64,000 nucleotides of DNA, from the NCBI GenBank assembly GCA_045807765.1, contig JBJMGU010000220.1:12796-76795 (forward strand). Reading direction: 5' to 3'. This DNA is from Blastocatellia bacterium. GTDB taxonomy: Bacteria > Acidobacteriota > Blastocatellia > UBA7656. This document shows, in pieces, positions 10,201-53,060 of the stretch. The translations under genes were made by a program, and so were the position numbers. The notes below the pieces were generated by a model that was given only the letters and a program-made list of their open reading frames with translations, was not told where the DNA came from and searched no databases. The stretch's first letter is position 1, and each line of letters starts with the position of its first letter.

Positions 10201-10213
10201 TGAGAAGGCGAAA

Positions 10214-16273: not shown

Positions 16274-16476
16274 GACCGGCGAAGATAAAAACCAACGGCG
16301 TGATTTGATCATGCAATTGCCACAACGGCACCGCAGACGCAGCGCTTCCCCTTACGCCCGCTGTGTCTCTGCGCCGTGGTGGCAATTTTTCTTTGCTCAG
16401 CACCTCTCCCCGACTCCCGACAGCCACGACACGTTTCCCGCCATGCCGCCGCCAATAATACAAACGACAGGTGAAC

Positions 16477-17259: not shown

Positions 17260-17272
17260 TCAAGGAGACGCT

Positions 17273-17575: not shown

Positions 17576-17576
17576 T

Positions 17577-18626
<1,050 letters not shown>

Positions 18627-18685
18627 AGGTTCGCGCAACAATGTCATAGCATAGAGCGTTGAGAGAGGAGAACGGAGCAACGCGC

Positions 18686-19597: not shown

Positions 19598-19710
19598 CGG
19601 ACAGAATAAACCACAGATGAACACCGATGAACACGGATCAAACAGAACATGAGGGGTGTGCCGTCTTGACCATCTGTGTTTATCTGTGTTCATCTGTGGT
19701 TTATTCTGTG
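19598..19710. repeat. intercistronic tandem-repeat hairpin (AT-rich, unit ~CAGATGAACA)
   Basis: Left arm cggacagaataaaccacagatgaacaccgatgaacacggatcaaacagaacatgagg; right arm ccatctgtgtttatctgtgttcatctgtggtttattctgtg. The core is a 23-bp perfect stem (cagaataaaccacagatgaacac), and the extension has two G-T oppositions (G-U in plus-strand RNA). It starts 1 nt after the stop at 19597 and ends 12 nt before ATG 19723. Confidence 0.75.
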
Positions 19711-19722
19711 TTGAATTAAATT

Positions 19723-25514: not shown

Positions 25515-26591
25515 ATGGAAGACGCTTATGAGGTGGAACTCGACAACGTCACGCGGCGCTTTGGCGACCTGACCGCGGTTGACGCGGTAACCCTCGGCAT
25601 CAGGCGTGGCGAATTCCTGACCCTGCTCGGCCCGTCGGGTTGCGGCAAGACGACGCTGCTTAGAATGATCGCCGGCTTTGCCGTGCCCGACAGCGGGCGC
25701 GTGCGCCTGGGCGGGCGCGACGTCACAGACCTGCCGCCTTACCGCCGCGATGTGACCACGGTCTTCCAACAGTACGCCCTCTTCCCGCACATGAACGTCT
25801 TCGACAATGTTGCCTTCGGGCTGCAACGCCGGCGTGTGGCGAAAGATGAAATCCGCCGCCGCGTCGACGACGCGTTGGAGATGGTTCGCCTGAGCGGACT
25901 GGATGAGCGCACGCCTGCGGAGCTATCCGGCGGCCAGCAACAGCGCGTTGCGCTGGCCCGCGCGCTGTTGCTTGAGCCACGCGTTCTCCTTCTCGATGAG
26001 CCGTTGGCGGCACTCGATTTGAAATTGCGTAAACAGATGCAGCTTGAGCTGAAAGGCTTGCAGCGGCGACTCGGCATCAGCTTTATCTACGTCACTCACG
26101 ATCAAGAAGAAGCCCTGACGATGAGCGACCGCATCGTCGTCATGAATGCGGGTCATATCGAGCAGATCGGTCGCGCCGAAGAGATTTACGAGCGCCCCGT
26201 CAGCGAATTCGTTGCCGGTTTCATTGGCATCTCGAACATCATTGAAGCCACGGTCGCGGAAGTGCGCGACGGTCTTTCTATTGTCGACATCAATGATTCA
26301 TCTGTCGCCGTTCAAGGTGATGTCGTGGCCGCAGGCGACCGCGTCCGCCTGATGGTGCGGCCTGAAAAGATCAAGTTGTCGAAAGACGGCGCAGCGGGCG
26401 GGCTCGGCGGGCACATCGAGTCGGCGGTCTATCTCGGCGAAAGCACGCAATGGCGCATCATGTTAGACGGCGGGCAAGCCATCATCGCGCTTGAGCAGAA
26501 TCAACAGCCGTTCGATTCTTCGCAGGCGCGCATCGGCCAACCGGTCACGGTCAGTTGGGAACCGGCCAGCGCCGTGATACTTCGCGGGTAA
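25515..26591 (+). CDS. ABC transporter ATP-binding protein, PotA/FbpC-like
   Basis: Walker [10 protein letters not shown], signature [15 protein letters not shown], Walker B LLLDEPLAALD, and a C-terminal TOBE-like domain. Confidence 0.85.
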   Translation: MEDAYEVELDNVTRRFGDLTAVDAVTLGIRRGEFLTLLGPSGCGKTTLLRMIAGFAVPDSGRVRLGGRDVTDLPPYRRDVTTVFQQYALFPHMNVFDNVAFGLQRRRVAKDEIRRRVDDALEMVRLSGLDERTPAELSGGQQQRVALARALLLEPRVLLLDEPLAALDLKLRKQMQLELKGLQRRLGISFIYVTHDQEEALTMSDRIVVMNAGHIEQIGRAEEIYERPVSEFVAGFIGISNIIEATVAEVRDGLSIVDINDSSVAVQGDVVAAGDRVRLMVRPEKIKLSKDGAAGGLGGHIESAVYLGESTQWRIMLDGGQAIIALEQNQQPFDSSQARIGQPVTVSWEPASAVILRG

Positions 26592-27642: not shown

Positions 27643-29373
27643 ATGAACATACTCGGACTATCTGGACAGGAGCGCGACGCGGCGGCGGCGCTTGTGCAGA
27701 AGGGACGCGTCGTTGCCGCCATCGAAGAAGAAAAACTGGCGCGCATTCGTCACATCGGCATGAATTACGCCGGTGGCTTGCCGCAACGCGCCATTCAGTT
27801 CTGCCTGGAGCGCGCCGGCATCACCTACGAGCAGCTCGATTACATCGCCTATTACCTCGAGCCTTATAAGAAGTTTCATCGAGAGATTGCTTTCAGCTCG
27901 ACGCGCGCCACACAGGCACTCGACGCCGATACCATCGAAGACTTCCCGCCCTACTTCGTTGACAGTCTTAACGAGCTAAAGCAGCGGCTACGCACCCGGC
28001 GGATGATCGAATCGCGCCTGTCTGCAAAGGGTCAATTCATCGCCGTGCCGCATCACCTGGCACACGGCGCGAGCAGCTTCTACGCTTCTGGCTTCGAGCG
28101 CGCCGCTGTAATCTCTGCCGACCAGCGCGGCGATATGACGACGACCGCCTTGATGACCGGCAGCGGCCACGAATTGCGACTCAACGCCGAAGCGCGATTC
28201 CCCAACTCGCTCGGCCTCGTCTATAATGCGGTCACCGCGGCGCTCGGCTTCGATTACGAAGGCGACTGGCACAAGACCATGTGGTTGGCGCCGACCGGCG
28301 AGAATCGCTTCGCCGATCTCTTTAACGATCTGCTCGCGGTTGACCAGAGCGGTCTGCCGTTGATCAATCAGGAATTTTTCAATATTGACGCGCGCGGCAT
28401 CGCGGCGCTATCGGAGAAATTTTTTGAGCGTGCCGGGATCAAGCCGCGCGCTCGAACCGACGCGCTGACCGCCACACATTGTGATCTTGCCGCCAGCCTG
28501 CAAGCCCGCCTTGAAGAGACACTCTGCGACATCGCCGCGCGCCACCGCAAAGCGACCGCCGAAGACAGCCTTTGTCTGGCGGGCGGTGTGGCGCTGAACA
28601 GCCTGGCCAACGCGGCGCTCGAACGACGCGCCGGCTTCACGCGAATCTTCGTACAGCCGGCGGCAGGCAACGCCGGCGCATCGCTGGGCGCAGCGCTTTA
28701 CGTCCATCACCAGATGCTTGGCAACCGCGAGCGCGTCTACCGGATGGAGCATGCTTTCTTAGGCCCGCAAACCACCGACGACGAGATCAAGAGCGTGCTG
28801 GATAATTGTAAGCTGGCTTATGAATACTTTCTGACCGAAGACAAGCTGATCGCCGAAGTCGCCCGCCTGCTGGCTCAAGGCCGCATTACCGGCTGGTTTC
28901 GCGGCGCTATGGAATTTGGGCCGCGGGCGCTGGGCGCTCGCAGCATTCTGGCGTCGCCGGTATCCGAGATGATGCGCGACAACCTGAACGTCTACATCAA
29001 GCGCCGCGAAGATTACCGCCCGTTCTCGGCCTCAGTGCCGGAAGAGCGCGCCGCCGAATTCTTCGAGCCGAGCGCGCTGACCGAGTTCCTGCAAGGGATC
29101 AGCCGCATTCGCGAGGACAAGCGGGCGCTGATTCCTGCGGCGGTCTTCGGCAACGATCTGGTGCGCGTCCACAGTGTCAATCGTAAGACCAACCCGGTGT
29201 TCTGGAAGCTGCTGACGAAGTTCGGCGAAGCGACAGGCGTGCCCGTCTTACTGAACACCTCATTCAACCTCTTCGGCGAGCCAGTGGTATCAACGCCGCG
29301 CGAAGCCGTGCGCGGCTTTTATTGTTCCGGTATCGATTGCCTGACCATCGGCAATTTCGTGATCAAGAAATAA
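27643..29373 (+). CDS. NodU/CmcH-family carbamoyltransferase
   Basis: 576 aa. The N-terminal Kae1/YgjD-like domain (MNILGLSGQERDAAAALV..., HHLAHGASSFYASGF) and C-terminal CmcH domain are typical of O-carbamoyltransferases (TobZ/NodU). Confidence 0.75.
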   Translation: MNILGLSGQERDAAAALVQKGRVVAAIEEEKLARIRHIGMNYAGGLPQRAIQFCLERAGITYEQLDYIAYYLEPYKKFHREIAFSSTRATQALDADTIEDFPPYFVDSLNELKQRLRTRRMIESRLSAKGQFIAVPHHLAHGASSFYASGFERAAVISADQRGDMTTTALMTGSGHELRLNAEARFPNSLGLVYNAVTAALGFDYEGDWHKTMWLAPTGENRFADLFNDLLAVDQSGLPLINQEFFNIDARGIAALSEKFFERAGIKPRARTDALTATHCDLAASLQARLEETLCDIAARHRKATAEDSLCLAGGVALNSLANAALERRAGFTRIFVQPAAGNAGASLGAALYVHHQMLGNRERVYRMEHAFLGPQTTDDEIKSVLDNCKLAYEYFLTEDKLIAEVARLLAQGRITGWFRGAMEFGPRALGARSILASPVSEMMRDNLNVYIKRREDYRPFSASVPEERAAEFFEPSALTEFLQGISRIREDKRALIPAAVFGNDLVRVHSVNRKTNPVFWKLLTKFGEATGVPVLLNTSFNLFGEPVVSTPREAVRGFYCSGIDCLTIGNFVIKK

Positions 29374-30323
29374 TGAGTAAACAACTTTATCTAGTCACCG
29401 GCGGCGCGGGTTTCATTGGCAGCCACCTCTGCGAGCGGCTGGTTCGAGAAGGCCAGGGCGTGCGCGTGCTTGATAATTTCTTCGCTGGCAAAGAAGCGAA
29501 CCTCGAACCGTTCAAAGACAACATCGAGGTGATACGCGGCGACATCCGCGACGCGCGCACAGTGACTGATGCGATGCGCGGCGTTAATATTGTTTTTCAC
29601 GAAGCCGCGCTCGGCTCAGTGCCGCGCTCGGTCGCCGACCCTTTGAGCACGCATGAGGTCAACATCAACGGCACGTTGAACGTCTTGCTCGCGGCGCGCG
29701 ACGCCGGCGTGCGGCGGGTGGTTTCGGCATCGAGCTCGTCGGTCTACGGCGAAACGCCGACGCTGCCCAAGCATGAAGGAATCACGCCGCAGCCGCTTTC
29801 GCCTTATGCGCTGTCAAAGCTCACGGGCGAGCAATACATCAGCGTCTTCAATAAGGTCTATGGATTCGAGGCGGTGGCGCTGCGGTACTTCAACATCTTC
29901 GGGCCGCGCCAGGACCCTGAGTCGCAATACGCGGCGGTGATCCCGCGCTTTGTCACTGCCTTGTTCGAAGGCCGCCAACCGGTGATCTATGGCGATGGTC
30001 AGCAGTCGCGAGATTTTACTTTTGTCGAGAACGTCGTCGAAGCGAACCTGCTGGCGTCGGAGGCCGAAGGCATCGCGGGCCGCGCCTTCAATGTGGCCTG
30101 TGGCGGACGTTACACGTTGCTCGACGTGCTAGCGAAGCTGAAAGAGATCATCGGCAGCACCATCGAACCGCTGCACGAAGCCGCCCGCCGCGGTGACGTG
30201 CGTGATTCGCAGGCTTCGATAGATGCGGCTGCCGAGGCTTTCGGCTATCGCGTTAAAGTGGATTTTGATGAAGGCTTGCGGCGCACGGTGGCGTGGTACA
30301 AGGCGCAGGCCGTCGGCGATTGA
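29373..30323 (+). CDS. NAD-dependent epimerase/dehydratase (extended SDR; UDP-sugar 4-epimerase / WbpP-like)
   Basis: GGAGFIGSHL Rossmann motif and YxxxK (YALSKL). The start ATG overlaps the carbamoyltransferase stop as TAATG. Confidence 0.75.
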   Translation: MSKQLYLVTGGAGFIGSHLCERLVREGQGVRVLDNFFAGKEANLEPFKDNIEVIRGDIRDARTVTDAMRGVNIVFHEAALGSVPRSVADPLSTHEVNINGTLNVLLAARDAGVRRVVSASSSSVYGETPTLPKHEGITPQPLSPYALSKLTGEQYISVFNKVYGFEAVALRYFNIFGPRQDPESQYAAVIPRFVTALFEGRQPVIYGDGQQSRDFTFVENVVEANLLASEAEGIAGRAFNVACGGRYTLLDVLAKLKEIIGSTIEPLHEAARRGDVRDSQASIDAAAEAFGYRVKVDFDEGLRRTVAWYKAQAVGD

Positions 30324-31396: not shown

Positions 31397-32110
31397 CTAG
31401 ACGGTGACGGGCGGGGCGGTCTTCTCTTCGTCCACGACCAGGCCGTCGAACACGTGCACGGTGCGGTCGGCGTGCGAGGCATAGCGCTGGTCGTGCGTCA
31501 CCATGCAGATGGTCGCGCCCTGTTCGTGCAATTCGCTGAGCAGTTCCATGACCGCTTCGCCGTTGACCGAATCGAGGTTACCGGTCGGCTCGTCGGCGAG
31601 CAGGATCAGCGGATCGCCGGCGACGGCGCGGGCGACGGCGACGCGCTGCTGTTGACCGCCAGAGAGCTGGCTGGGCAGATGCTTGGCGCGGTGCGCCATA
31701 CCGACGCGCTCAAGCGCCGCGCGAACGCGGTCACGGCGCTCATTGGCGCGCATGCCGCGATAGGTGAGCGGCAGCTCAACGTTCTCGTAAACCGAGAGGT
31801 CGCCGATGAGGTTGAAACTTTGAAAGATGAAACCGACTTCGCGGTTGCGGATGCGGGCGCGCTCAGACAAGGGCAGATCGGCAACCGGTTTGCCGCCGAG
31901 CCAGTAGCCGCCATCGGAAGGCGAGTCGAGGAGACCGAGAATCGACAGCAAAGTGGATTTGCCGCATCCCGATGGTCCGGCGATTGAGATATACTCGCCG
32001 CGCTCGACTTCAAGGTGAATGCCCGACAGCGCATGGGTTTCGACTTCGTCGGTGAGAAAAACTTTGGTCACGCCTTCGAGCTTGATCAGCGGTTGATCGT
32101 TCGCGCTCAT
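31397..32110 (-). CDS. ABC transporter ATP-binding protein, LolD/MacB-type (no adjacent permease)
   Basis: Walker [10 protein letters not shown], signature [14 protein letters not shown], Walker [13 protein letters not shown]-loop TICMVTHD. Confidence 0.8.
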
Positions 32111-32376: not shown

Positions 32377-34935
<2,559 letters not shown>

Positions 34936-38227: not shown

Positions 38228-38336
38228 TCAGGGATTATATCACGCCCTTCGTTTGCAAAACCCCATCGCGGGTGACCTGTTTCTCGGCGATTTTGCGCAT
38301 GCATGATTGAGCACAGAATTGCTGGAGGATGAAGAG

Positions 38337-41300
38337 ATGACCGCGAGATGGGTACGCGCCGGTGTGATGATAATTTCAGCGCTTGCGGTGCTGGGCCTGG
38401 CTTCGAGCCAATTTGAAGAAGCGGCTTCCACTGCCGGCTTACAGAAGCGGGCACCCGCCGCCGTCTTCACCGTCAACTCGACGGGCGACCAGGCAGACCT
38501 CGTGCCTGGGGACGGGGTTTGCTTGACCGCGAACGGCGACTGTACGCTGCGGGCCGCCCTAGAAGAAACCAACGCCCTGGCCGGTGCCGACACCATCAAT
38601 TTCAACATCGGCACGGGCACCCCCTCAATCACGCCGGCAGCCGCGCTGCCATCGATTACCGATCGGCTGACGATTGACGGCAACAGTGGCGGCGCGGCCC
38701 GCGTGCAAATCAATGGAAGTGGCGTTGCGACAGCCGGCACACACGGGCTGGTACTGGCACCAGGCAGTAGCGGCAGCGCGATCCGCTCGCTGGTCATCCG
38801 GCAATGGACCGGTAACGGCGTACGCATCCAGTCAGACAACAACCTAATCGAGAATAACTACATCGGTACGAACGAAACCGGCAGCGTCACGGCGGCCAAT
38901 GGCGCGGGCGGCGTTGTGATCTCTGGCGGCTCTGGCAACACCATTGGCGGCTTGAGCGCGACGGCGGGGACGGCGCCGGGCAATGTCATTTCGGGCAACG
39001 ACACGAATGGCGTCATGCTCACCGCCGCCGCGACGATGAATAGCGTGCAGGGTAACCTGATCGGGATTGCCGCCGGCGGCGCAACAGCGCTGAGGAACAC
39101 AGGTCACGGCATCTTGATCGATAGCGCGCCGGCCAATACCATCGGCGGCTCGACAACAACGGCGCGGAACATCATTACCGGGGGCACCGCGACGACTTCA
39201 TTCGGAGTCGCTATTCAGGGCGAGACCAGTGACAACAACACGATAGCCGGAAACTATATCGGCACAGACATCACAGGCATGAACGACATCGGCGCGGGCG
39301 GCGACGGCGTGCGAATCAATTCGGGGCCGGATAACAACACGATAGGCGGCTCGACGGCGACACCTGGCACGCCGCCCGGCAACGTCATCAGCGGCAACGG
39401 CGCGACCGGCTGTGGCACCTGTGACGGTATTGAAATCGTCGGCAGCAGTACGATACAGAACACGACTACCGGCAACAAGATTCAGGGCAACATCATCGGC
39501 CTGAAAGCCGACGGCATGGCGGCTTTGAAGAACGAGCGCAACGGCATCAACATCAACGACGCCTCTAGCACGACCATCGGCGGCTCGTCGGCGATGGAGC
39601 GCAATGTCATATCGGGCAATAACACAGACGCCAACACCGACGGCATAGATATGAATGGCGAGAACGCCGACAACAACACGATTGCCGGCAATTACATTGG
39701 CACCAACATCAATGGCACGGCGGCCATCGCCAATGGCGGCAACGGCGTCTTTGTCAACGGCGGGCCGGATAACCTCACCATCGGAGGCTCGACGGCAACG
39801 CCCGGTACGCCGCCCGGCAACGTCATCAGCGGCAACACCGGCGACGGCGTTGAGCTTCTCGGCGGCGCCAGTTCGGGCCATCTGGTGCGCGGCAATTTGA
39901 TCGGCCTTCAGGCGGGCGGCGCGGCGGCGCTGGGCAACGGAGCCAACGGCGTGCTGCTGAATCAAACCACCAGCTCGATCATCGGCGGCTCAACTTCTGA
40001 TCTGCGCAATATCATCTCTGCCAACGGCGCCAACGGCGTGCAATTGAACGAAGGGCAGGGCGGCATATTCGACAACAACACAGTCGCAAGCAACTACATC
40101 GGCACAGACATCACCGGCATGAGCGCCCTCGGCAACACGAGCGCCGGAATTCACATCGTCCAGGCTGATGGCGTCACTGTCGGCGGCATTACGGCAACGC
40201 CCGGTACGCCGCCCGGCAACGTCATCAGCGGTAACAACACCGTCGGCATCGATGCCGACAATGCTAATGATGATGCGGTGCAAGGCAACCTGATCGGCCT
40301 GAAAGCCAATGGCGCGGACGCCCTGCCCAACACCAGCCACGGCATTCATATCCGCAACACCTCGGTCAGAATCGCCGTCGGCGGGACGGCAGCCGGGGCC
40401 GCCAACCGCATCGCTTTTAATGGCGGCGATGGCGTGAATGTCGCGGGCGCTTCCAGTAACGGCAACTCGATCCGCGCCAACTCGATCTACTCGAACACCG
40501 GGTTAGGCATAGACTTGGCCGGCGGCACCGAGAACGCCAGTGGTGTGACGGCCAACGACCCGAACGATAGCGACGCCGGGGCAAACACCTTACAAAATTA
40601 CCCGGTGATCACTGCGGCCACCGTGAGTGGCGGCAGCATAACGGTCGCAGGCACTTTGAACAGTGCGCCCAACATGACCTTCGCCATTGAGTTTTATTCG
40701 ATGACGACCGCCGACCCTTCGGGCAATGGCGAAGCGACAAGCTATCGCGGCTCGACCTCTGTGACGACAAACGCCAGCGGCAACGCCAGCTTCAGCGGCA
40801 TCATACTGGCCACCACAGACCCGCTGATTACCGCGACCGCCACCAACACGACGGGGTCGCCTGCCAACAACACTTCGGAATTCGCCGCTGACTTCACGGC
40901 GTCGAGCCCGACCATTGTCCGGCTCGAATCGTTTAAGGCGCTCGCTGATGACAGCGGTAAAGTCTATTTAGAATGGCAGACCGGCTACGAGGCAGACAAC
41001 CTCGGTTTCAATCTCTACCGCGAAGTCCGTGGTCAGCGCACACGGATTAATCCTTCGCTGATCGCCGGGTCGGCGCTGATCGCCGGCCAAGATACTGTCC
41101 TTGCCGCCGGCGCTGTTTATTCGTGGGTTGACGCGCAAGGTGCGGCTGATATGGCGGCGATGTACTGGCTCGAAGACATTGACTTGAGCGGCGGCGCAAC
41201 CCTGCACGGCCCCTTCTTTACTTCGCCCGTAGGCAAGCTCCCCGCCGAAGCCCGCGCGGTTCTGCTCAATGAGATTAATGATTCAGGCGACGCGGCTCAG

Positions 41301-43421
41301 AGGCAATTGCTGCCGGTGACTGCAAGCCGCAAAGGCATGGCGATGTTTTCAGCCGACCGCCTTGCCAACGACAGCCTTGCCAGGCAGTGGGAGATTGCCG
41401 CTCAAGCAGGCGTCAAGCTGCTGATCAAGCAAGCCGGCTGGTATCGCATCACTCAGCCCGAACTCATTGCCGCCGGGCTCGAGCCAATGCGCGACCCGCG
41501 CTTCTTACAACTCTTTGCCGATGGCCAGGAGGTCGCCATGCTCGTCAACGGCGGCTTTAAAGGGCGGCTCGATTCGACCGACTCCATCGAGTTTTTCGCC
41601 ACTCCACTCGATACCCCGGAGACCGCTACACACGCCTATTACCTCATCTTCGGCGCGCAGCCCGGTCGCCGCATCGCGGGCGTTAGCGGCCTTCCCGACA
41701 AACCGGACGAGGCTCAGAGCTTTGCTTACACCACCGAACTGAAGCCGCGGTATCTCTACTTCCCTTCAATCAAGAACGGCGACGCCGACAACTGGTTCGG
41801 CCCCATCATCAGCAGCACGCCTTATACGCTCTCCTTGAAAGTTTCGCAGCCTGATTCCCAGGCCCAATCGCCTGCCACGCTCGATCTGGTTACACAGGGA
41901 CTCGGCCTCAACGTTGGGCATGGCGTCAGCCTTAGCTTCAACGGCTCGTTTATCGGTACAACTCTATTCGATAGTCAGGCGCATTCAACGACCTCGTTCA
42001 CGCTGCCGATGTCGCTGCTGCGCGACGGCGACAACAGCATCACTTTGCAAGCTCTCAATGGTCCGAGCGATTTCAGCGTCCTCGATGTCGTGCGTCTGAC
42101 TTACGCGCACCGCTTCGTCGCCGACGACAATGCCCTGCTGATGAGCGCCGACGGCGGACAGACCATACAGATCAGCGGCTTCCTGCGGCCCGCCGTTCGC
42201 CTTTTCGACATCACTGACGCGAGCAACCCTGTCGAGATTCAAGGTCAGGTTGAAGCGGACGGTAATAGCTACCGGCTGACAGCGGCATTGCCCAGCGGCG
42301 GGCCGCGCCAGCTCTATGCCATCAGCGAGCGCGCTGTCCAACATCCGGCGCAGGTCATCACCCAGCGACCCTCAACCTGGAACCGCGCCGCCAATGGCGC
42401 TGACCTCATCATCATCTCGCACGCCAGCCTCATCTCTAGCCTTGAGCCCCTCAAACAGCTCAGACTCAGTCAGGGCTACTCCGTCGCCGTCGTTGATGTC
42501 GAAGACCTCTTTGATGAATTCTCCTTCGGCGCTCACTCCGCCGCTGCCGTCCGTGACTTTCTCACCCGCGCTCACACGCTCTGGAAGAAAGCTCCCCGTT
42601 GGGCGCTGCTCGCCGGCGACGCCAGCTACGATCCGCGCAACTATCTCGGCCTCGGCGACAACGACTTCGTCCCCACTGGCCGCATCACCACCTTGCAGTT
42701 CGAGACCGCCTCTGATGAGTGGCTCGGCGACAGCGACGGCGACGGCCTTTCAGAAGTCGCCATCGGTCGCCTGCCGGTGCGCTCACCTGAGGCTGCGGCG
42801 CTGGTTGTCGGTAAGCTGCTCAATTATGAGAAGCAGCGCCACGAAGGCGCTTTGCTGGTCGCTGACCGCAATGACGGCTACAACTTCGAGGCGGCGACAA
42901 CGGCGGTCAAGAGCCTGCTGCCGCCGGGGCTGGCGGTGATGACCATCTATCGCAGTCAGATGGATGACGCGGCGGCGCATCAAGCGGTGATGGCGGGGCT
43001 CAGTCGCGGGCCACTGGTGGTCAATTATGCCGGGCACGGCTCGGCCAGTGTGTGGCGCGGCAGCGTGCTGGTGACCGCTGATGCGGCGAGTCTGAGCAAC
43101 CGCGACCATCTGACGGTAGTGATCTCGATGACCTGCTTGAACGGCTTGTTCAATGATCCGCGAACGGCGAGCCTGGGCGAAGCGCTGCTGTTATCAGAGG
43201 GAGGAGCGGCGGCGGTGTGGGCGTCGTCGGCGCAGACAAGCGGCGACGGGCAGGCGCAGATGAATCAAGAAGTGATGCGGCAGTTGTTCGGGGGAGCGAC
43301 GGCGCGAGTGCAGGGGATGACTATCGGCGAGGCGACGAAGCGAGCGCGGCAGGTGGTCAGCGACAGTGACGTGCGGCGGAGCTGGGTGTTGCTGGGCGAT
43401 CCGACGATGCGGGTGAAGTAA
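38337..43421 (+). CDS. giant secreted protein: CSLREA domain + right-handed parallel beta-helix repeats + C-terminal peptidase C25 (gingipain-like) domain
   Basis: Signal peptide MTARWVRAGVMIISALAVLGLASS. A CSLREA-like motif (DGVCLTANGDCTLRAALEETNA). About 25 beta-helix repeats of NxxIxGNxIG type. The C-terminal ~400 aa match the C25 pattern (RWALLAGDASYDP; AIGRLPV; NYAGHGSASVW; MTCLNG), with His-Cys spacing of 33 residues as in gingipain R. ATG 38337 is preceded by GGAGGA. Confidence 0.7.
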   Translation: MTARWVRAGVMIISALAVLGLASSQFEEAASTAGLQKRAPAAVFTVNSTGDQADLVPGDGVCLTANGDCTLRAALEETNALAGADTINFNIGTGTPSITPAAALPSITDRLTIDGNSGGAARVQINGSGVATAGTHGLVLAPGSSGSAIRSLVIRQWTGNGVRIQSDNNLIENNYIGTNETGSVTAANGAGGVVISGGSGNTIGGLSATAGTAPGNVISGNDTNGVMLTAAATMNSVQGNLIGIAAGGATALRNTGHGILIDSAPANTIGGSTTTARNIITGGTATTSFGVAIQGETSDNNTIAGNYIGTDITGMNDIGAGGDGVRINSGPDNNTIGGSTATPGTPPGNVISGNGATGCGTCDGIEIVGSSTIQNTTTGNKIQGNIIGLKADGMAALKNERNGININDASSTTIGGSSAMERNVISGNNTDANTDGIDMNGENADNNTIAGNYIGTNINGTAAIANGGNGVFVNGGPDNLTIGGSTATPGTPPGNVISGNTGDGVELLGGASSGHLVRGNLIGLQAGGAAALGNGANGVLLNQTTSSIIGGSTSDLRNIISANGANGVQLNEGQGGIFDNNTVASNYIGTDITGMSALGNTSAGIHIVQADGVTVGGITATPGTPPGNVISGNNTVGIDADNANDDAVQGNLIGLKANGADALPNTSHGIHIRNTSVRIAVGGTAAGAANRIAFNGGDGVNVAGASSNGNSIRANSIYSNTGLGIDLAGGTENASGVTANDPNDSDAGANTLQNYPVITAATVSGGSITVAGTLNSAPNMTFAIEFYSMTTADPSGNGEATSYRGSTSVTTNASGNASFSGIILATTDPLITATATNTTGSPANNTSEFAADFTASSPTIVRLESFKALADDSGKVYLEWQTGYEADNLGFNLYREVRGQRTRINPSLIAGSALIAGQDTVLAAGAVYSWVDAQGAADMAAMYWLEDIDLSGGATLHGPFFTSPVGKLPAEARAVLLNEINDSGDAAQRQLLPVTASRKGMAMFSADRLANDSLARQWEIAAQAGVKLLIKQAGWYRITQPELIAAGLEPMRDPRFLQLFADGQEVAMLVNGGFKGRLDSTDSIEFFATPLDTPETATHAYYLIFGAQPGRRIAGVSGLPDKPDEAQSFAYTTELKPRYLYFPSIKNGDADNWFGPIISSTPYTLSLKVSQPDSQAQSPATLDLVTQGLGLNVGHGVSLSFNGSFIGTTLFDSQAHSTTSFTLPMSLLRDGDNSITLQALNGPSDFSVLDVVRLTYAHRFVADDNALLMSADGGQTIQISGFLRPAVRLFDITDASNPVEIQGQVEADGNSYRLTAALPSGGPRQLYAISERAVQHPAQVITQRPSTWNRAANGADLIIISHASLISSLEPLKQLRLSQGYSVAVVDVEDLFDEFSFGAHSAAAVRDFLTRAHTLWKKAPRWALLAGDASYDPRNYLGLGDNDFVPTGRITTLQFETASDEWLGDSDGDGLSEVAIGRLPVRSPEAAALVVGKLLNYEKQRHEGALLVADRNDGYNFEAATTAVKSLLPPGLAVMTIYRSQMDDAAAHQAVMAGLSRGPLVVNYAGHGSASVWRGSVLVTADAASLSNRDHLTVVISMTCLNGLFNDPRTASLGEALLLSEGGAAAVWASSAQTSGDGQAQMNQEVMRQLFGGATARVQGMTIGEATKRARQVVSDSDVRRSWVLLGDPTMRVK

Positions 43422-43461
43422 GGCGGCGTGAGCCGACAAGAAAGCAGCAGAGCGCACGAAA

Positions 43462-43530
43462 AAGCGAAGGGTCAGAGAAGCAGCGGACAACCTCTTGCCG
43501 GGGATGACGTGGCTCTGATCCTTCGCTCTA
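43462..43530 (+). terminator. rho-independent terminator after the giant gene
   Basis: cgaagggtcagag ... ctctgatccttcg forms a 13-bp stem with one mismatch and a long loop, followed by ctctattttt. Confidence 0.5.
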
Positions 43531-43706
43531 TTTTTGCCGTCCGGGCGCTGCCGGCTGGCAAGCGAAAAAACACTTTGGCGGTTGGCTTGTCGTCGCGAAA
43601 TCGGGTATCCTTCACAGGTTATTTTACCGCCCTGCCCGCTTGCCATCATCATCGCCGTTTTGCTTGCACAGGCTGGGGCACGTGCGAATTGGCGGAGAGA
43701 GTGTAA

Positions 43707-44681
43707 ATGATCGCTTTTGAAAAACTGTCAGGACAACGGATCGTCGTGACCGGCGGCGCCGGCTTTGTCGGTTCCAACATCGTGCGCCGCCTCCTGCGCG
43801 AAGGCGCGCGCGTCGTCGTGCTGGATGATTTCTACACCGGCACGCTAGAGAACTTGCCCGGTGACGCCGCCGACATGGAGATCGTGCGCGGCACGGTGAC
43901 CGATTACGAACTGGTGCGCGACGTCGTCCAGGGTGCTGCCATCGTCTTTCACGAAGCGGCGCGCAACATCATCGTCTCGACGCGCAACCCGCGCGAGGAT
44001 TACGAAGTCAACATCGGCGGCACACTGAACGTGCTGCTGGCGGCGCGCGAAACCAACGTACCGCGCACGGTTTACGCTTCGTCGGCTTCGGTCTACGGCA
44101 ATCCGCGTTACTTGCCGATCAATGAAGACGATGCGACCAACATGCTCAGCCCTTACGCCGTCTCGAAATTCGCGGGCGAGAATTACTGCAAGGCGTTCTA
44201 CGAAAGTTACGGCTTGTCAGTGGCGGCGGTGCGCTATTCAAACGTCTTTGGCACGCAGCAACGCCCCGACAATCCTTATTGCGGAGTCATCGCTAAGTTC
44301 TTCGAGTCGACGATGCAGAACGAAGCGCCGCGCATTCACGGCGACGGCGAGCAGACACGCGATTTCACCTACATTGATGATGTCGTCGAGGCGACGCTGA
44401 TGGCCGGCATCTCGTCGAAGGCCGAGGGTCAGGTCTATAATGTCGGCACCGGGCGCGAAACGACGATCAATCAACTGGCGCGGATCATCATCCGCATCAC
44501 CAATGCGCAGGTCGAGCCGACCTATGTTGACCGCCGCGACATTGACAACATCCGCCGCCGCGTCGTCAACATCGAAAAGATTCGCCGCGAGCTGCGCTGG
44601 GTGCCATCCGTGACCATCGAAGAAGGTCTGCGCCGAACTTACCAATGGCTGAAAGAGAACAACGAGGGGAGACCGGCATGA
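43707..44681 (+). CDS. NAD-dependent epimerase/dehydratase (extended SDR, UDP-sugar epimerase/decarboxylase-like)
   Basis: GGAGFVGSNI Rossmann motif and YAVSKF (YxxxK). 324 aa. Confidence 0.75.
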   Translation: MIAFEKLSGQRIVVTGGAGFVGSNIVRRLLREGARVVVLDDFYTGTLENLPGDAADMEIVRGTVTDYELVRDVVQGAAIVFHEAARNIIVSTRNPREDYEVNIGGTLNVLLAARETNVPRTVYASSASVYGNPRYLPINEDDATNMLSPYAVSKFAGENYCKAFYESYGLSVAAVRYSNVFGTQQRPDNPYCGVIAKFFESTMQNEAPRIHGDGEQTRDFTYIDDVVEATLMAGISSKAEGQVYNVGTGRETTINQLARIIIRITNAQVEPTYVDRRDIDNIRRRVVNIEKIRRELRWVPSVTIEEGLRRTYQWLKENNEGRPA

Positions 44682-45436
44682 ACGCTTCGCCGGCGCTCGA
44701 CGTGGAGGTTATGACCCGCCCGCAGCCGCGCGTGCTGTGCGTCGCACCCGCCTGGAACGAAGGCGAGCGCATCGCCCGCGTCGTCGGCGCCGTGCCGCGC
44801 GACCTCGTTGAAGCGACAGTGGTCGTGGACGACGGCTCAAGCGACGCGACCCGCGATTACGCCGAAAGCGCCGGCGCGACAGTGATTCGTCAGGGCGCTA
44901 ACCGCGGCGTCGGCGCGGCGATTCGCGCCGGCATCGATTATGCGCGGGCCAATGGTTTTGATGTCGTGGTGATTGTATCGGGCGGCGGCAAGACACCGCC
45001 TGAGCAGATTCCGCGACTGGTCGAGCCGATTCTGCGGGGCGAAGCCGAGCTGGTGCAGGGCTCGCGCTACCTCAATGGCGGCGAATACCTGCGCATGCCT
45101 TTGCGCCGCCGTGTCGGCACGCGCGGCTACACCTGGTTGTTTTCCTTCTTCTGCGGCAGGCGGGTCACTGATGCATCAAGCGGATTTCGCGCCATCAAGC
45201 TGTCGTTGTTCGACGACCAGCGCATCAACCTCTGGCAAGAATGGCTCGACCGTTACGAGCTGGAGCCTTACTTGCTCTTCAAAGCCCTGCGCCTGCGCCA
45301 TCGCGTTGTCGAGGTTCCGGTGACAATCGAGTACCCGAAGACCGACGGCATCGCTTACACAAAGATGCGCGCCATCACCGATTGGTGGAAGATCTTCCGC
45401 CCCATCGTCTTTCTGGCCTTCGGCATCAAGCGATAG
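44678..45436 (+). CDS. GT2-family glycosyltransferase (polyprenyl-phosphate sugar synthase / DPM1-like)
   Basis: GT-A fold with a DxD-like motif (VVVDDGSSD). Start overlaps the epimerase stop as ATGA. Confidence 0.7.
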   Translation: MNASPALDVEVMTRPQPRVLCVAPAWNEGERIARVVGAVPRDLVEATVVVDDGSSDATRDYAESAGATVIRQGANRGVGAAIRAGIDYARANGFDVVVIVSGGGKTPPEQIPRLVEPILRGEAELVQGSRYLNGGEYLRMPLRRRVGTRGYTWLFSFFCGRRVTDASSGFRAIKLSLFDDQRINLWQEWLDRYELEPYLLFKALRLRHRVVEVPVTIEYPKTDGIAYTKMRAITDWWKIFRPIVFLAFGIKR

Positions 45437-46038: not shown

Positions 46039-48306
46039 GTGAGCGAGGCCGCGGCGGCGCACGAGGCGCTGCAACAGCATTTTGGCTTCACCGAATTTCG
46101 CGAGGGCCAGGACGAAGTCGTCCAGGCTGTGCTTGCGGGCCGCAACGCGGTCGTCGTCATGCCGACCGGCGGCGGCAAATCGCTCTGCTATCAACTGCCT
46201 GCCCTGATGCGCGAAGGCACAACGCTTGTCGTTTCGCCGCTCATCGCGCTGATGAAAGATCAAGTTGATCAGCTCGCCGAGCGCGGCATCAGTGGCACCT
46301 TCATCAATTCCAGCCTGAGCTACAGCGAAACCAACATTCGCCTGAGCCGTTTGCGCATGGGCGAATACAAGCTGGTTTATGTCGCGCCCGAACGCTTTCG
46401 CAGCCAGGCCTTCATGGATTCAATCGGCGAGACCCGCGTGCGATTGTTTGCCGTTGACGAAGCGCATTGCATCTCGCACTGGGGCCATGACTTCCGCCCC
46501 GACTACCTGCGGATGAAGCCGGCTATCGAGCAGCTCGGCAATCCGCAGGTCATCGCGCTGACGGCGACAGCGACGCCGCAGGTGCGCGCAGACATCTGCG
46601 AGCAGCTCGGGCTTACGGACGCGCAGGTCTTTGTTGCCGGCTTTGACCGCCCCAATCTCGCCTTGCGCGTCATGCACACGGCGACCGAGCGCGAAAAGAT
46701 CGACACGCTGAAGCGCTTGATCCGCCATGCGGCGGGCGCGGGCATCATCTATGCGGCGACGCGCAAGAGTGTCGAGCAGATTGCCGCCAAGCTCAAGCTC
46801 GCCGGATTGCGCATTGAGCTGTATCACGGCGGCATGGACGACGGCGAGCGCAGCCGCGCGCAAGACGCTTTCATGCGCGGCGATGCGCAGGCCATCGTAG
46901 CGACCAACGCCTTTGGCATGGGCATCGATAAACCCGACATTCGCTTCGTGGCGCATTTCCACCTGCCGGGCTCAATCGAAGCTTACTATCAAGAGGTTGG
47001 GCGCGCTGGCCGCGACGGACTGCCGTCGGAATGCGTCCTGCTGTTTAACTACGCGGACACGCGCACGCAGCAATTCTTCATCGAAGGCAGCCACCCGTCG
47101 CCAGAGCTGATCAAGCGCGTCTATGACGAGATCGCTTCATTCGGCCTGGAGCGCGTCGAGCTGACGGCGCGCGAGCTCAGCGAGCGATTGCGCGTCAAGA
47201 ATGATATGTCCATCCATTCGGCGCTCGTCGTGTTGGAGAAGGCCGGCCACATCGAGCGTGGTCGCGCCAGCGAAGCGACCATTCTGGCGCTGATGAAGAT
47301 GCCAATTGACGTGGCGCTCGAAGCCGTCCGCGACGATTCGAATGAAGGCGGCGTGCTGCGCGACCTGATTTTCACGCGCAACGTCAACGAGCGGGAGCAG
47401 ACAGAGCTTGATCTGAAGGCCATCGCCGCGCAACTCGGGCTGAGCGACGCACAGATGCGCCGGGCGCTGGCGGCGCTCGAAGCCAAAGGCTTGATCGGTT
47501 ATCACGCGGCGTTTCAGGGGCGCGGCATCCGCTTGCTGGACGCGCCGCCGGCGCGGGCCTTGCGGGTTGACACCAGAGAGCTGGCCGCGCGCGCCGCCGC
47601 TGAACAGGGAAAGCTGCGGCGCATGATCGATTATTGCTATCATAAGGCTTGCCTGCGCACCTACATTCTGAAATACTTCGGCGACCGCAAACAGGCGCCG
47701 GCGTGCGAGAGCTGTTCGAGCTGCGCGCCCGCCGACGCGCGTTACCTTGAAGAAGAGCGTATCCAGGCGCCGCCCGCGGGCACCTTGCGCATGGGCCGCG
47801 CACGGAAAGCCGAGACCAACCGGGCGACCGAACTTGAGCAGTTCATCATCGAGCAAGCGCCAGCCGGCGTCGAGTTGCGCGAACAACTAAAAGCGCGCGC
47901 CGCCAGCCGCCGCGCGCTGACGCGGGCCGAATCCGCGGGCGATGCGCCGCGAGAGCGTGCGCGCAAGCCGAACCTGGCACAGATGACCGTCGTCATCAAG
48001 ATACTCAGTTGCATCGCCCGCATCGAGCGCGAATATGGCCGGGGCCGTTTCGGCAAGGGAACGGTGGCGGCAGTCTTGCGCGGCTCGACCAGTAAGCAGG
48101 TGCTTGAAAGCAAGCTCAACAAGCTCTCGACCTATGGCTTGTTGAGCGATATGCGGCAGGACGAGATTACCGCTTACATCAAAGCATTGATTGATGCCGC
48201 GTGCGTCGCCGTCGAAAAAGGTCTCTATCCAACGGTGAGCCTCACCGATTTCGGGCGCGAGGTGATGCACCGCCGCGCCGAAGTCATGCTGGAATTGCCG
48301 GATTGA
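46039..48306 (+). CDS. recQ: ATP-dependent DNA helicase RecQ
   Basis: Helicase motifs (MPTGGGKSLCYQLPA, DEAH in FAVDEAHCISHWGHDFRPDY), an RQC zinc-binding region and a C-terminal HRDC-like domain. 755 aa. Confidence 0.9.
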   Translation: MSEAAAAHEALQQHFGFTEFREGQDEVVQAVLAGRNAVVVMPTGGGKSLCYQLPALMREGTTLVVSPLIALMKDQVDQLAERGISGTFINSSLSYSETNIRLSRLRMGEYKLVYVAPERFRSQAFMDSIGETRVRLFAVDEAHCISHWGHDFRPDYLRMKPAIEQLGNPQVIALTATATPQVRADICEQLGLTDAQVFVAGFDRPNLALRVMHTATEREKIDTLKRLIRHAAGAGIIYAATRKSVEQIAAKLKLAGLRIELYHGGMDDGERSRAQDAFMRGDAQAIVATNAFGMGIDKPDIRFVAHFHLPGSIEAYYQEVGRAGRDGLPSECVLLFNYADTRTQQFFIEGSHPSPELIKRVYDEIASFGLERVELTARELSERLRVKNDMSIHSALVVLEKAGHIERGRASEATILALMKMPIDVALEAVRDDSNEGGVLRDLIFTRNVNEREQTELDLKAIAAQLGLSDAQMRRALAALEAKGLIGYHAAFQGRGIRLLDAPPARALRVDTRELAARAAAEQGKLRRMIDYCYHKACLRTYILKYFGDRKQAPACESCSSCAPADARYLEEERIQAPPAGTLRMGRARKAETNRATELEQFIIEQAPAGVELREQLKARAASRRALTRAESAGDAPRERARKPNLAQMTVVIKILSCIARIEREYGRGRFGKGTVAAVLRGSTSKQVLESKLNKLSTYGLLSDMRQDEITAYIKALIDAACVAVEKGLYPTVSLTDFGREVMHRRAEVMLELPD

Positions 48307-49606: not shown

Positions 49607-51184
49607 ATGTTACAGCGTATGAGCCGCATTGCGGTGGCGTTCGGTATTGCCGTGTCGTTGGCGCTGGTGGCGAACCTGCCACGGGTCACAGCGCAGACGG
49701 ATGCCAAAGGCGACCCGCTCGCGAAAGCCACGCGCACGGAACGCAACGGCTGGATCTACCTGCATCTTGAAGGCACGCCCGATGAAGTCGGCTATCAGCA
49801 CGGCTGGCTGCTGGCGCGCGAGATCGATGACGCCTTGCGCGTCTTCAAGAAGTACTTGCAGCGCGTCACCGCGCACGACTGGGCATTTTATCGCAACGCC
49901 GCGCACGAGATGTTCTGGAGCAAGCTCGACGACGAGTACAAGCACGAGATTCAAGCCATCGCCCGCGGCGCTTATGCGCGCGGCGTGCACATTGACGCCG
50001 ACGACGTGCTGGCGATGAACGGCTGGATGGAGCTGGCGTTTTATTACATCCCGTCGCTCACGCAGGCGCGCATAGACGACCCCGAACTGCATCAGTCGCC
50101 GCCGCCCGCCTGCTCGGCCTTTGTCGCCACCGGCAGCTATACCAAAAATGGTGACATCGTTATGGCGCACAACAACTGGATCGATTACTTGATCGGTCGT
50201 CACTGGAATATCATGGTCGATCTAAAGCCGGCGGCGGGCCACCGCATCCTGATGGATTCGTTCCCCGGTTTCATCCATTCAGGCGATGATTTCTATGTGA
50301 ACGATGCCGGATTGATGGTCACTGAAACGACGATCAGCGACTTCAAAGGATTCGACCCGGCGGGGCTGCCGGAGTTCTACCGCATACGCAAAGCCACGCA
50401 GTACGCCGATTCGATTGACGGCTGGCTGAAGGTGATGATGGATCATCCAAACGGCGGCTATGCTAACGACTGGCTGATTGGCGACCGCAAGACGGGCGAG
50501 ATCGCGCGGCTCGAAAACGGTCTCAAGAATAACATCGTCGAGCGCACCAAAGACGGTTACTTCGTCGGCTCGAACTTCCCCGTCCATGAAAAAACGATTA
50601 AGGAAGAGACGAGCTTTGACCCGAACGGCACGACCAACGGCGCCAATGCACGGCATCGCCGCTGGGACGAGCTGATGAAAGAAAACCGCGGCAAGATCGA
50701 TGTCACGCTGGCCAGGAAGTTTCTGGCTGATCATTATGACGGGACGCGCAAGCGCAACGGCGGCTCGGCCAATACCCTCTGCGGCCATGTCGAACTGGAC
50801 GACAAGGGCGCGAACAGCGACTGGCGCAGCTTCTATCCCGCCGGCGCATCAAACGCCAAAGCTACAGACGGGCGGCTGGCCGCTGAGATGAAATTCTGGG
50901 CGGCGATTGGTCATGCGTGCGGCGCGGATTTTAGGCTCGATACGTTTTTGAAAGCGCACCCGGAATACGAGTGGCAGCGCGAGCTGGCTGGTGATATGCC
51001 GAGCGGCGCGTGGACATTATTTGCAACGACGACGCCGGCGACCGGAGCGAAAGCCCGCAACCGTGGGCCGATAGACACGCAAATCCAGACGCCCTATCCA
51101 AACGACGTGAGGAACCGGCAGCGCGGGCCGCTCGGAGACCCAAAGGCGCCCTTGCCCGGTGACACGCGCCCGCCAATCAGGTAA
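49607..51184 (+). CDS. Ntn-hydrolase superfamily protein, peptidase C45-like (acyl-CoA:6-APA acyltransferase family)
   Basis: Signal peptide, then a candidate nucleophile Cys in [26 protein letters not shown]. About 525 aa. ATG 49607 follows AGGAGGG. Confidence 0.5.
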
Positions 51185-51283
51185 AGCGCAGCGCCAGAGC
51201 GCAAGAAAGGTCGAGCCGCCAGGACCGACAGGTGTCTGTCCTGGCGGCTCTCGCTTTTCCCGTTCGTTTGCGACTCGATGGGC

Positions 51284-51475
51284 TTATGTAAGCTGCAACA
51301 CAATCCCCGGCTTGTTGATGTTCACGTCAATCTCGTGCTTGCTGCCGCCAAACATCCTGTGGAATGCGCCGGTGAAATACAGCACGGCAAGCAGTACGAT
51401 CAGCATCAATACGATAGCAATGGCCGTCATGCCGCTGCCGCCATCACGGTTCACCTCAATAATTCTGTCTGCCAT
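51284..51475 (-). CDS. small membrane protein (63 aa)
   Basis: [42 protein letters not shown]..., single TM. The track ORF is longer; start chosen at the first plausible Met. Confidence 0.35.
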
Positions 51476-51746
51476 AAACGATTCCTCCGCTCTATTCGGA
51501 TTTGCTTTCCCCTCGCTATTAGGGGCAACTCCGATGCCACGCTCGCGTAGAGGCGCAGGGCGCGTCTTTTGGCGGAAATCGTCTGCCCCGAGCGCCGGCC
51601 TGTATCTGTTTTCCAATCGGTGTGTACGGCGAAAAGACAGCCGGCGCGTACCGTGCAATCCGGTCTTCACGCGGCGCGTTCCTTTTTTTGCGCCGTGCGC
51701 TAGTGTAGGATTATTCGTTCACGCAACGACCATCACAGGAGCGATT

Positions 51747-53060
51747 ATGGTGCAGACTTACATCCGCGATCTAGCCGGTCACGTCGGCGAAGAAGTGACC
51801 ATCAAAGGCTGGCTTTATAACATCCGTTCGAGCGGCAAGCTCAAGTTCCCACAGATCCGCGACGGCTCAGGCTTGATCCAGGGCGTCGTCTCGAAGCGCG
51901 ACGTCAGCGAGCAGATATGGAATGACTTCGAGCGTCTGACGCAGGAATCATCGATCATCGTGCGCGGGCGAGTGCGCGAGCATCCTAAACAGCCCGGCGT
52001 TTATGAGCTGGACGTCAGCGGCCTCGACGTTGTGCATGTGGCCGAAGAATATCCCATCACGCCGAAAGAGCATGGCACAGAGTTCCTGATGGATCACCGC
52101 CATCTCTGGCTGCGCTCGCGTCGCCAGCATGCCATCCTCTCGGTGCGCGCTGAAATCATTCGCGCCGTGCGCGATTACTTCGACTCGAATGGCTTCCTGC
52201 TGATGGACACGCCGATCTTCACGCCCGCCGCCTGCGAAGGCACGACGACGCTATTCGAGGTCAACTACTTCGACGACAACAAAGCCTACCTGACACAATC
52301 GGGCCAGCTCTACAACGAAGCGACCGCCGCCGCTTTCGGCAAAGTCTACACCTTTGGCCCGACGTTTCGCGCAGAGAAGTCGAAGACCCGCCGTCACCTG
52401 ACGGAGTTCTGGATGGTCGAGCCGGAAGTCGCTTACGCCGATCTCGACGATGTCATGAATCTGGCCGAAGACTTCATCTCGTTTGTTGTCGGGCGCGTGC
52501 TGGAAAACCGCCAGGCTGAGCTAAAAGAGCTGGAGCGCGATACGGCGAAGCTCGAAAAGATTCAGAAGCCCTTTCCGCGCCTGCAATACGACGAGGCCGT
52601 GCGTATGCTGCAAGAAGGCTTCGAGAAAGGCGAGCTGGAAACGCGCTTTGAATGGGGCGGCGACTTCGGTGCGCCGGACGAGACATACATCTCAAGCCAG
52701 TACGACCGCCCGGTGATGGTGCATCGCTACCCGGCGGCGGTGAAAGCGTTTTACATGAAGCCCGACCCCGAGCGAGCCGATCTGGCGTTGTGCGTTGACG
52801 TGCTGGCGCCCGAAGGCTACGGCGAAGTCATCGGTGGCGGCCAGCGCGCTGACGACCTCGATTATCTGCTCAAGCAGATTCAGGCACACGGCCTGCCCGA
52901 AGAGGCTTTCGACTGGTATCTCGACCTGCGCAAGTATGGCAGCTTCCCGCACGGCGGCTTCGGCATGGGCATCGAGCGCTGCACCGCGTGGCTCTGTGGC
53001 ATCGAGCACATTCGCGAAACGATTCCCTTCCCGCGAATGCTCTATCGCCTGAAGCCTTAA
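51747..53060 (+). CDS. asnS: asparaginyl-tRNA synthetase
   Basis: An anticodon-binding OB fold is followed by a class II core with motifs [29 protein letters not shown] and [13 protein letters not shown], and the AsnRS-type [17 protein letters not shown]. The track ORF 51159-53060 is over-extended upstream. Confidence 0.85.

Follow-up and report, generated by a model that had tools for sequence, protein, structure and literature searches.

To our knowledge, PorU is the only C25 cysteine peptidase known to serve as both signal peptidase and sortase and is considered a speciality of the Bacteroidota type IX secretion system (T9SS). Here we describe a C25 peptidase gene from a soil acidobacterium (Blastocatellia bacterium, assembly GCA_045807765.1), located in a stretch of 64,000 nucleotides of contig JBJMGU010000220.1 (positions 12,796 to 76,795; hereafter, the window), and compare its product with PorU and other described systems. 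The natural substrates of PorU are proteins with an immunoglobulin (Ig)-like C-terminal domain (CTD) (PMC11285876); PorU cleaves at T/E/D/N|G/A/S beside this domain and can transpeptidate (PMC10202324, PMC11285876). The gingipains RgpB and Kgp (MEROPS C25; PDB 1CVR, 4IEF, 4RBM) are degradative enzymes built in the order Propeptide_C25, catalytic domain, IgSF domain, and CTD. More distantly, a role in the autoprocessing of large bacterial surface proteins has been proposed for clan CD domains, which are known to autoprocess large toxins (PMC3482391). The cysteine protease domains of MARTX and clostridial glucosylating toxins (C80, clan CD) share with the protein described here a His/Cys domain within a very large secreted protein, which we take as a functional analogy with no claim of homology; they belong to another family, are ~200 amino acids (aa) long, are activated by inositol hexakisphosphate, and lie internally, not at the C-terminus. 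Our literature search found no paper on C25/PorU-like proteins outside the Bacteroidota, nor on fusions of CSLREA and C25 domains or on the present architecture.

The window protein very probably is a Sec-exported, modular protein of two units, a variable passenger and a self-contained 840-aa module, the latter consisting of an Ig-like domain, a linker of ~45 aa, and a catalytically competent PorU-type core (Table 1). We tentatively read it as a processing peptidase of PorU type that works without a T9SS and to which its own tagged cargo is fused, an interpretation that we prefer while rating it somewhat short of probable. The protein already carries a generic C25 annotation in NCBI, where MFL6277241.1 ([quoted passage not shown]) is identical to the product of this open reading frame (ORF), and the family is large. 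Its interest lies in the combination of a C25/PorU-type peptidase with a T9SS-independent, cargo-fused architecture and an undescribed, tag-like domain.

The C-terminal peptidase compared with PorU and the gingipains

A HMMER search against Pfam matched Peptidase_C25 (PF01364) to residues 1358-1693 (246 bits, cut-off 23; E=9.3e-73), spanning positions 2-374 of the 374-position model. A preliminary description of this DNA had placed a C25 domain at the C-terminus on the strength of four motifs, all of which the protein contains (RWALLAGDASYDP at residue 1421, AIGRLPVRSP at 1475, NYAGHGSASVW at 1563, and MTCLNG at 1598), and it had likened the spacing of the putative catalytic residues to that of RgpB His211-Cys244. 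This too stood up: His1567 and Cys1600 are 33 residues apart and align without gaps to His211/Cys244 of RgpB and to the NYAGHG...TC motifs of PorU, where the spacing is the same. Counted over 222 family members, His1567 is conserved in 221 and Cys1600 in 220, the remainder being gaps; D1432, D1460, and R1478 are found in 222/222 and D1510 in 219/222. Judging from this alignment, the catalytic residues are under strict selection, and the peptidase is apparently active and full-length, with its dyad intact.

Residues 855-1694 were modelled with AlphaFold2 from 41 aligned sequences, and the model had a predicted local distance difference test score (pLDDT) of 86.6 and a predicted template modelling score of 0.85. 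When the model was compared with the PDB using Foldseek, the best match was PorU (6ZA2; E=2e-29, ~804 aligned columns, query-normalised TM 0.48), followed by RgpB (E ~1e-16, target-normalised TM 0.65-0.68, root-mean-square deviation 3.2-3.6 Å) and then Kgp; target-normalised TM for the two gingipains spans 0.57-0.68. The predicted structure thus has the caspase-like catalytic fold that the preliminary description had anticipated, whereas its label "gingipain-like" needs amending, as PorU is the nearer relative in this comparison and in a phmmer search of the PDB (PorU 6ZA2, E=5e-21; Kgp and RgpB, 1e-7 to 1e-6). By sequence and by model, the last ~680 residues appear PorU-like rather than gingipain-like.

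The likeness to PorU is partial. The NCBIfam model T9SS_sortase (NF033707, an equivalog domain) aligned over profile positions 8-732 of 1095 to residues 1026-1693, with 216.6 bits against a cut-off of 420, about half the curated threshold, and the PorU2 model (NF052324) scored 177.7 against 450. Because the match covers this part of the profile, the core corresponds to the PorU N-terminal domains plus the catalytic domain, without the post-catalytic third; profile positions 733-1095, which are missing here, include the CTD that PorU itself keeps (PMC11285876, PMC10202324). Both proteins have an ADxxD motif (ADRND here, ADNGD in PorU). Unlike PorU, the window protein adds ~1,000 N-terminal residues (passenger, Ig-like domain, and linker), and its host is an acidobacterium; no T9SS genes (SprA/Sov, PorV, GldKLMN, and others) were seen in 20 related loci or among the genes annotated in the 64-kb window. 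With the gingipains, the window protein has in common the catalytic fold and the ungapped His/Cys dyad. Sequence similarity to them is much weaker than to PorU, and the order of domains differs, with the enzyme last and neither a post-catalytic IgSF domain nor a CTD; Propeptide_C25 (PF08126) gave no Pfam match in the protein. In the phmmer alignment, RgpB Asp163, which binds Arg in the S1 pocket, corresponds to Ala; gingipain-type Arg specificity is therefore not expected.

The module family, the Ig-like domain, and the linker

Relatives found with the full-length protein came mostly from Blastocatellia, Pyrinomonadaceae, and other Acidobacteriota metagenome-assembled genomes (MAGs), the close ones belonging to abundant soil Acidobacteriota. 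An exhaustive HMMER search with the 840-aa module, with clusters formed at 50% identity, returned 19,180 clusters with E<=1e-3, of which 4,974 had E<=1e-30; a PorU-type core without the T9SS docking domain is widespread by this measure, with the caveat that part of the ~5,000 clusters at the stricter threshold may be true PorU. The whole module is present in all 150 best clusters (E<1e-196) of the 4,974 and forms the protein end in 147 of these 150, and in complete BLAST homologues it stops 0-10 residues from the C-terminus. As relatives nearly always end with the module, a C25 domain at the C-terminus is the norm here and not the oddity that the preliminary description had seen in it. In the rare exceptions P0258, P0260, and P0309 the C25 domain is not last and, by eye, is followed by a DUF11-like segment, a ~580-aa extension, or a dockerin-like repeat.

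Proteins with the module range from 813 to 2,982 aa, and the passengers ahead of it differ widely (beta-helix, DUF11/CLIPPER, Calx-beta, reprolysin, VCBS, and BNR/sortilin). In some relatives there is another domain of protease or protease-associated type, such as the reprolysin of P0061 and the P_proprotein domain of P0058. One MAG (GCA_040754075.1) encodes at least four module paralogues with different passengers on three contigs, two of them adjacent, and tandem pairs of C25-module genes were found at loci L021 (783-5489 and 6001-13212) and L002 (7913-12061 and 12434-17161). We compared the window ORFs with 11 genome loci and, in addition, inspected the genes called around 6 more homologues; across the 20 loci examined, no neighbour gene was conserved and no partner was shared with the window, so the unit looks self-contained.

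The first element of the conserved module is the Ig-like domain. In BLAST searches with residues 781-1694, the alignments to relatives carrying different passengers set in at residues 851-861, that is, at this domain. Its model has seven strands and a pLDDT of 90.6, and W880, E885, N888, L889, and G890 are invariant in the family. The preliminary description had suggested that the segment beginning VRLESF is an unrecognised domain, and we agree: it is conserved over ~105 aa, and no curated family covers it in Pfam, NCBIfam, or the PDB. Foldseek with the domain model gave weak matches to Ig V domains. RGI_lyase (PF18370) was considered as a name for it and rejected, as the matches were weak only (27.8 bits in one homologue, 12-18 in others).

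A profile search found the Ig-like domain in 913 proteins, and a metagenome scan found it at no fewer than 484 loci. Outside the C25 family it mostly lies at the extreme C-terminus, with a tail of at most 11 aa in 103 of 107 proteins and of at most 10 aa in 112 of 114 metagenomic ORFs. These tag-only proteins end in HGPVSATPRLIYGxGK, their N-terminal parts vary (LRR_5, DUF1566, and TSP3), and several have signal peptides; in a few GC-rich proteins (P0159, P0163, and P0316) a hydrophobic plus basic tail follows the domain. The domain resembles a C-terminal tag for sorting or secretion of a kind not described before. It is analogous in this respect to the T9SS CTDs (TIGR04183-type), which are likewise seven-stranded beta-sandwiches of ~100 aa at the C-termini of diverse proteins with signal peptides (PMC11285876), and the tag-only proteins share a conserved terminal motif containing Lys. 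Unlike a T9SS CTD, the Ig-like domain of the window protein is internal, with the enzyme after it. Two to four copies of the tag occur in adjoining ORFs at 26 of 80 metagenomic loci.

Between the Ig-like domain and the core lies a linker that the AlphaFold2 model leaves disordered (pLDDT <50 at residues 983-1008). MAFFT aligned the terminal PRLIYGIGK of tag-only proteins to the A.LL..LG motif of the C25 family (AVLLNEIN, residues 974-981), and the disordered linker therefore starts where tag-only proteins stop. Across the family the linker has a median length of 55 aa and a semi-conserved motif, [ST]xx[VL]E[PSA]xA, at a fixed position (E in 49/75, V or L in 48/75); a looser form of the motif is found in 54% of family linkers, against a shuffled mean of 31%. 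PVT|AS, matched by eye to the family's PVE|SR, was rejected as a cleavage site of the window protein, as MAFFT sets the family VE over Arg998-Lys999.

Possible roles of the module

According to the interpretation that we prefer, the PorU-type core would be a processing peptidase and not a bulk-degrading one, which is supported by its being closer to PorU, a CTD peptidase and sortase, than to the degradative gingipains. After export, the core would cleave polypeptides bearing the Ig-like tag, the first substrate being its own chain, cut at a flexible segment beside the tag; the pre-tag junction near residues 845-860 and the linker (residues 966-1010) are candidate cut regions, and paralogues could be further substrates. 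Cleavage would part the passenger from the enzyme and so release the passenger or activate the enzyme. No partner genes would be needed, because cargo plus tag are fused to the tag-handling enzyme. Also in favour of this reading are the strictly conserved catalytic residues, the nearly constant terminal position of the module behind exchangeable passengers, the paralogues and tandem pairs, the lack of conserved neighbours, the C-terminal, tag-like placement of the Ig-like domain in other proteins, the different C-terminal elements of beta-helix relatives without C25, the disordered linker with its semi-conserved motif, and what is published on cleavage by PorU and on autoprocessing by clan CD domains. 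Export, catalytic activity, and cleavage in cis, as well as its site, are points that we infer. The observation made in the preliminary description is confirmed, and its interpretation is partly supported: its suggestion of a protease that would process or anchor itself or neighbouring proteins agrees with the comparative evidence better than expected, although autoprocessing and anchoring would still be steps beyond that evidence.

Several findings weigh against a processing role. No relation in sequence or fold was found between the Ig-like domain and T9SS CTDs. AlphaFold2 leaves the linker undocked (pLDDT 35-57 at residues ~985-1014), and where the family has its linker motif the window protein has TASRKGMA, a degenerate form, for which reason we name no PorU-like cleavage site in it. 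In 80 metagenomic loci (~448 kb) checked for linkage, a C25 gene stood near a tag-only protein at only one (L060), and there was no C25 gene in the six contexts around tag proteins P0159, P0139, P0163, P0324, P0320, and P0345. At L060, an LRR_5 protein ending in the tag (9242-10342) lies ~7 kb upstream of the C25 gene (17483-20337), with housekeeping genes between them; the C25 gene is split or overlapping, comprising an ORF with a gingipain-type Propeptide_C25 (E=3.6e-20) and a PorU-like/C25 ORF that is truncated by the end of the locus, and we regard this proximity as a lead, not a result. Proteins consisting of a signal peptide and the module with no passenger also exist (P0240, 888 aa), so the module must serve a role other than passenger release as well. 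Finally, an enzyme of ~690 aa used once per molecule would be costly. It is quite possible, then, that the protein is a tethered degradative protease, which would remain intact outside the cell, held to a surface, polymer, or prey cell by its beta-helix (in paralogues, by another passenger), while the C25 domain breaks down proteins close by, for nutrition or to remodel surfaces, with no self-processing. Blastocatellia favour proteinaceous substrates for growth, which suits a plain secreted protease. The passenger-free forms and the cost of a single-use enzyme argue in the same direction, as do an apparently active, full-length peptidase (by sequence and model), paralogues whose different binding-type passengers could form a targeting toolbox, the reprolysin or P_proprotein domains of some relatives, and an alpha-2-macroglobulin gene adjoining one paralogue. 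However, the core groups with the processing enzyme PorU and not with the gingipains, and a tethered protease leaves unexplained why a domain that is a terminal tag elsewhere, together with a disordered linker, should always stand ahead of the core, and why the enzyme is the last element in 147 of the 150 best relatives.

A special case of processing is a sortase acting in cis, in which the core would form a thioester with the new C-terminus of the passenger and transfer it to an amine of a surface glycan or lipid, so that the passenger would gain a covalent anchor in the outer membrane with no T9SS involved. Transpeptidation is known from PorU (PMC10202324, PMC8545088), which the core resembles over ~680 residues; sugar-metabolism and polysaccharide-export genes lie nearby at some loci (an epimerase and a GT2 gene here, a Wza-like exporter at L002 and L005), and in other proteins the Ig-like domain stands ahead of anchor-like tails. 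Yet such glycan genes are not a conserved feature of the surroundings, neither a PorZ/PorV/PorQ-like partner nor a conserved gene for acceptor synthesis turned up in the window or the compared loci, and transpeptidation is not something that a sequence can reveal; we consider a cis-acting sortase decidedly improbable. Also unlikely, if somewhat less so, is a broader extension of the processing model, in which the Ig-like domain is the sorting tag of an undescribed system outside the Bacteroidota that parallels the T9SS CTD and PorU. In such a system, proteins ending in the tag-only tail motif would be handled by PorU-type C25 enzymes; the Acidobacteriota would have fused cargo, tag, and self-cutting enzyme, each cargo carrying its own sortase, and the passenger would be released or covalently attached to the surface. 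Caspase-like domains can be C-terminal toxin domains of polymorphic toxins (PMC3482391), and the N-terminal part of the window protein is long and filament-like, as a beta-helix stalk delivering such a toxin would be. A polymorphic-toxin-like function is nevertheless very unlikely, as the pattern of variability is reversed (conserved C-terminus, variable N-terminus), Pfam and NCBIfam reported no trafficking domain of type V, VI, or VII secretion systems in the protein, and no immunity-type gene lies 3' of the gene, where a 92-aa ORF (43428-43706) lacks coding bias and homologues. Least credible of all, and extremely unlikely in our view, is the view of the protein as a genuine PorU orthologue of a T9SS or as an Arg/Lys-specific protease of gingipain type, even though the best database matches are PorU and the gingipains: RgpB Asp163 is replaced by Ala, the NF033707 score is well below its cut-off over an incomplete profile, the catalytic domain is last with no CTD, and the host is an acidobacterium, whereas the T9SS is described as confined to the Bacteroidota (PMC5445135, PMC11611037). 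Membership of the T9SS itself was rejected on account of this sub-cut-off score, the absent CTD, and the lack of T9SS genes seen in the window.

Should the core process or anchor the cargo fused to it, diderm bacteria would have a new route for displaying giant surface proteins, and the module would be a self-contained unit of protein ligation with possible uses in biotechnology; a plain tethered protease would still belong to a major class of extracellular peptidases of soil nitrogen turnover that is so far unstudied. The finding itself is solid and suggests a sorting principle that can be tested and may be new, of which the key mechanistic step is the conjectural part.

The passenger, the gene, and the surrounding window

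Table 1. Features of the C25 peptidase gene and its product (positions are those of the window)
Feature	Position	Strand	Residues	Basis or remarks
Shine-Dalgarno-like GGAGGA	38324..38329	+		7 nt 5' of ATG; read from sequence
Complete ORF	38337..43421	+	1,694 aa plus stop	ATG start
Putative Sec signal peptide	38337..38408	+	1 to ~24	Sequence reading; no lipobox Cys
CSLREA-like N-terminal cap	38466..38567	+	44-77	CTLRAA motif at residue 69; Cys62/Cys69
Right-handed parallel beta-helix repeats	38568..40583	+	~78-749	Pfam Beta_helix and NosD; repeat motifs
Post-helix segment, part of passenger (NYPVITAA...SEFAADF)	40584..40910	+	~750-858	Homology to beta-helix proteins
Ig-like seven-strand beta-sandwich (VRLESF...NLYRE), ~105 aa	40914..41231	+	~860-965	Homology; domain model
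Linker	41232..41366	+	966-1010	AVLLNEIN (974-981); disordered 983-1008; TASRKGMA (995-1002)
PorU-like N-terminal region, mainly beta-strand	41367..42404	+	1011-1356	NCBIfam; Foldseek; DSSP strands
Peptidase C25 catalytic domain	42405..43418	+	1357-1694	PF01364; last residues GDPTMRVK are the protein C-terminus
Predicted catalytic His codon CAC	43035..43037	+	1567	Motif; family alignment
Predicted catalytic Cys codon TGC	43134..43136	+	1600	Motif; family alignment; sole Cys in last 1,330 residues

The length of 1695 aa originally given for the protein includes the stop codon. Its N-terminus, MTARWVRAGVMIISALAVLGLASS, reads by eye as a Sec signal peptide, in keeping with the earlier proposal of a secreted protein. 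The parallel beta-helix of that proposal is likewise upheld, with Beta_helix (PF13229; 27.8 against 25.9) and NosD (PF05048; 26.4 against 23.6) both narrowly above their cut-offs and PbH1-type repeats present (GNxIG seven times, NVISGN five times). The CSLREA domain was overstated: TIGR04214 scored 19.3 bits, below its cut-off of 25, and CTLRAA stands in the place of the motif. The homologues' consensus at the cap is a canonical CSLRxA, and several of them are named CSLREA proteins by JGI. With CSLREA beta-helix surface proteins (TIGR04214; PF13229/PF05048), the passenger has in common the two-Cys LRxA cap, the PbH1-type repeats, and the post-helix segment; in contrast to the window protein, with its sub-threshold cap, the others end without a peptidase. 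Residues 782-863 are common to beta-helix proteins without C25 (P0109, P0091, and P0084), and relatives of this kind carry other C-terminal elements, such as membrane-anchor-like tails and RTX-like repeats; the tail of one of them, P0054, by eye resembles a T9SS/FlgD-Ig CTD. The 1,694 residues include only five cysteines: two pairs, C62/C69 of the cap and C359/C362 of a helix turn that reads GCGTCDG, and the catalytic C1600.

The GC content of the window is ~60% throughout, and its housekeeping genes are of diderm type (TamB, an Omp85/POTRA protein, RibBA, LigA, PurF, RecQ, a Rho-like protein, and LysRS). A scan for promoters and terminators around the C25 gene gave nothing exceeding shuffled expectation. 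The 92-aa ORF just 3' of the gene has a GC content by codon position of 0.59/0.56/0.56, against a third-position value of 0.75 in real genes, and a search for its homologues found none; it was on these grounds rejected as an immunity or partner gene, and the 285-bp gap ahead of the epimerase gene is probably non-coding. The epimerase and GT2 (44645-45436) genes lie directly 3' of the C25 gene. The NAD-dependent epimerase has a paralogue in the window (29322-30323 and 43707-44681, 41% identity), and a second paralogous pair (25515-26591 and 31397-32110) is 38% identical; these two pairs, with the GT2 gene and a carbamoyltransferase gene (27643-29373), suggest that surface-glycan genes are scattered around the C25 gene.

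At related loci, C25 genes have other neighbours. A PqqD-like gene paired with NTP_transf_5, an uncharacterised nucleotidyltransferase, stands beside C25 genes at 5 of the 11 genome loci (L002, 17346-18913; L005, 6833-8523; L006, 694-2352; L007, 3656-5296; L008, 4150-5223) and is absent from the window; at L008 the nucleotidyltransferase alone was detected, and L002 and L005 also have a TPR protein and the Wza-like polysaccharide exporter. At L020, a bacterial alpha-2-macroglobulin (protease-trap) gene (15088-19953) lies ~1 kb 3' of the C25 paralogue P0073, which is flanked by a histidine kinase and a response regulator. Elsewhere in the window, weak winged-helix matches (MarR_2/DUF4423) of the RecQ gene (46039-48306) fall between its helicase core and its RQC domain, the LysRS (51159-53060; 633 aa) has ~200 additional N-terminal residues, and an 852-aa CBM9/DUF5916 protein is encoded at 32377-34935.

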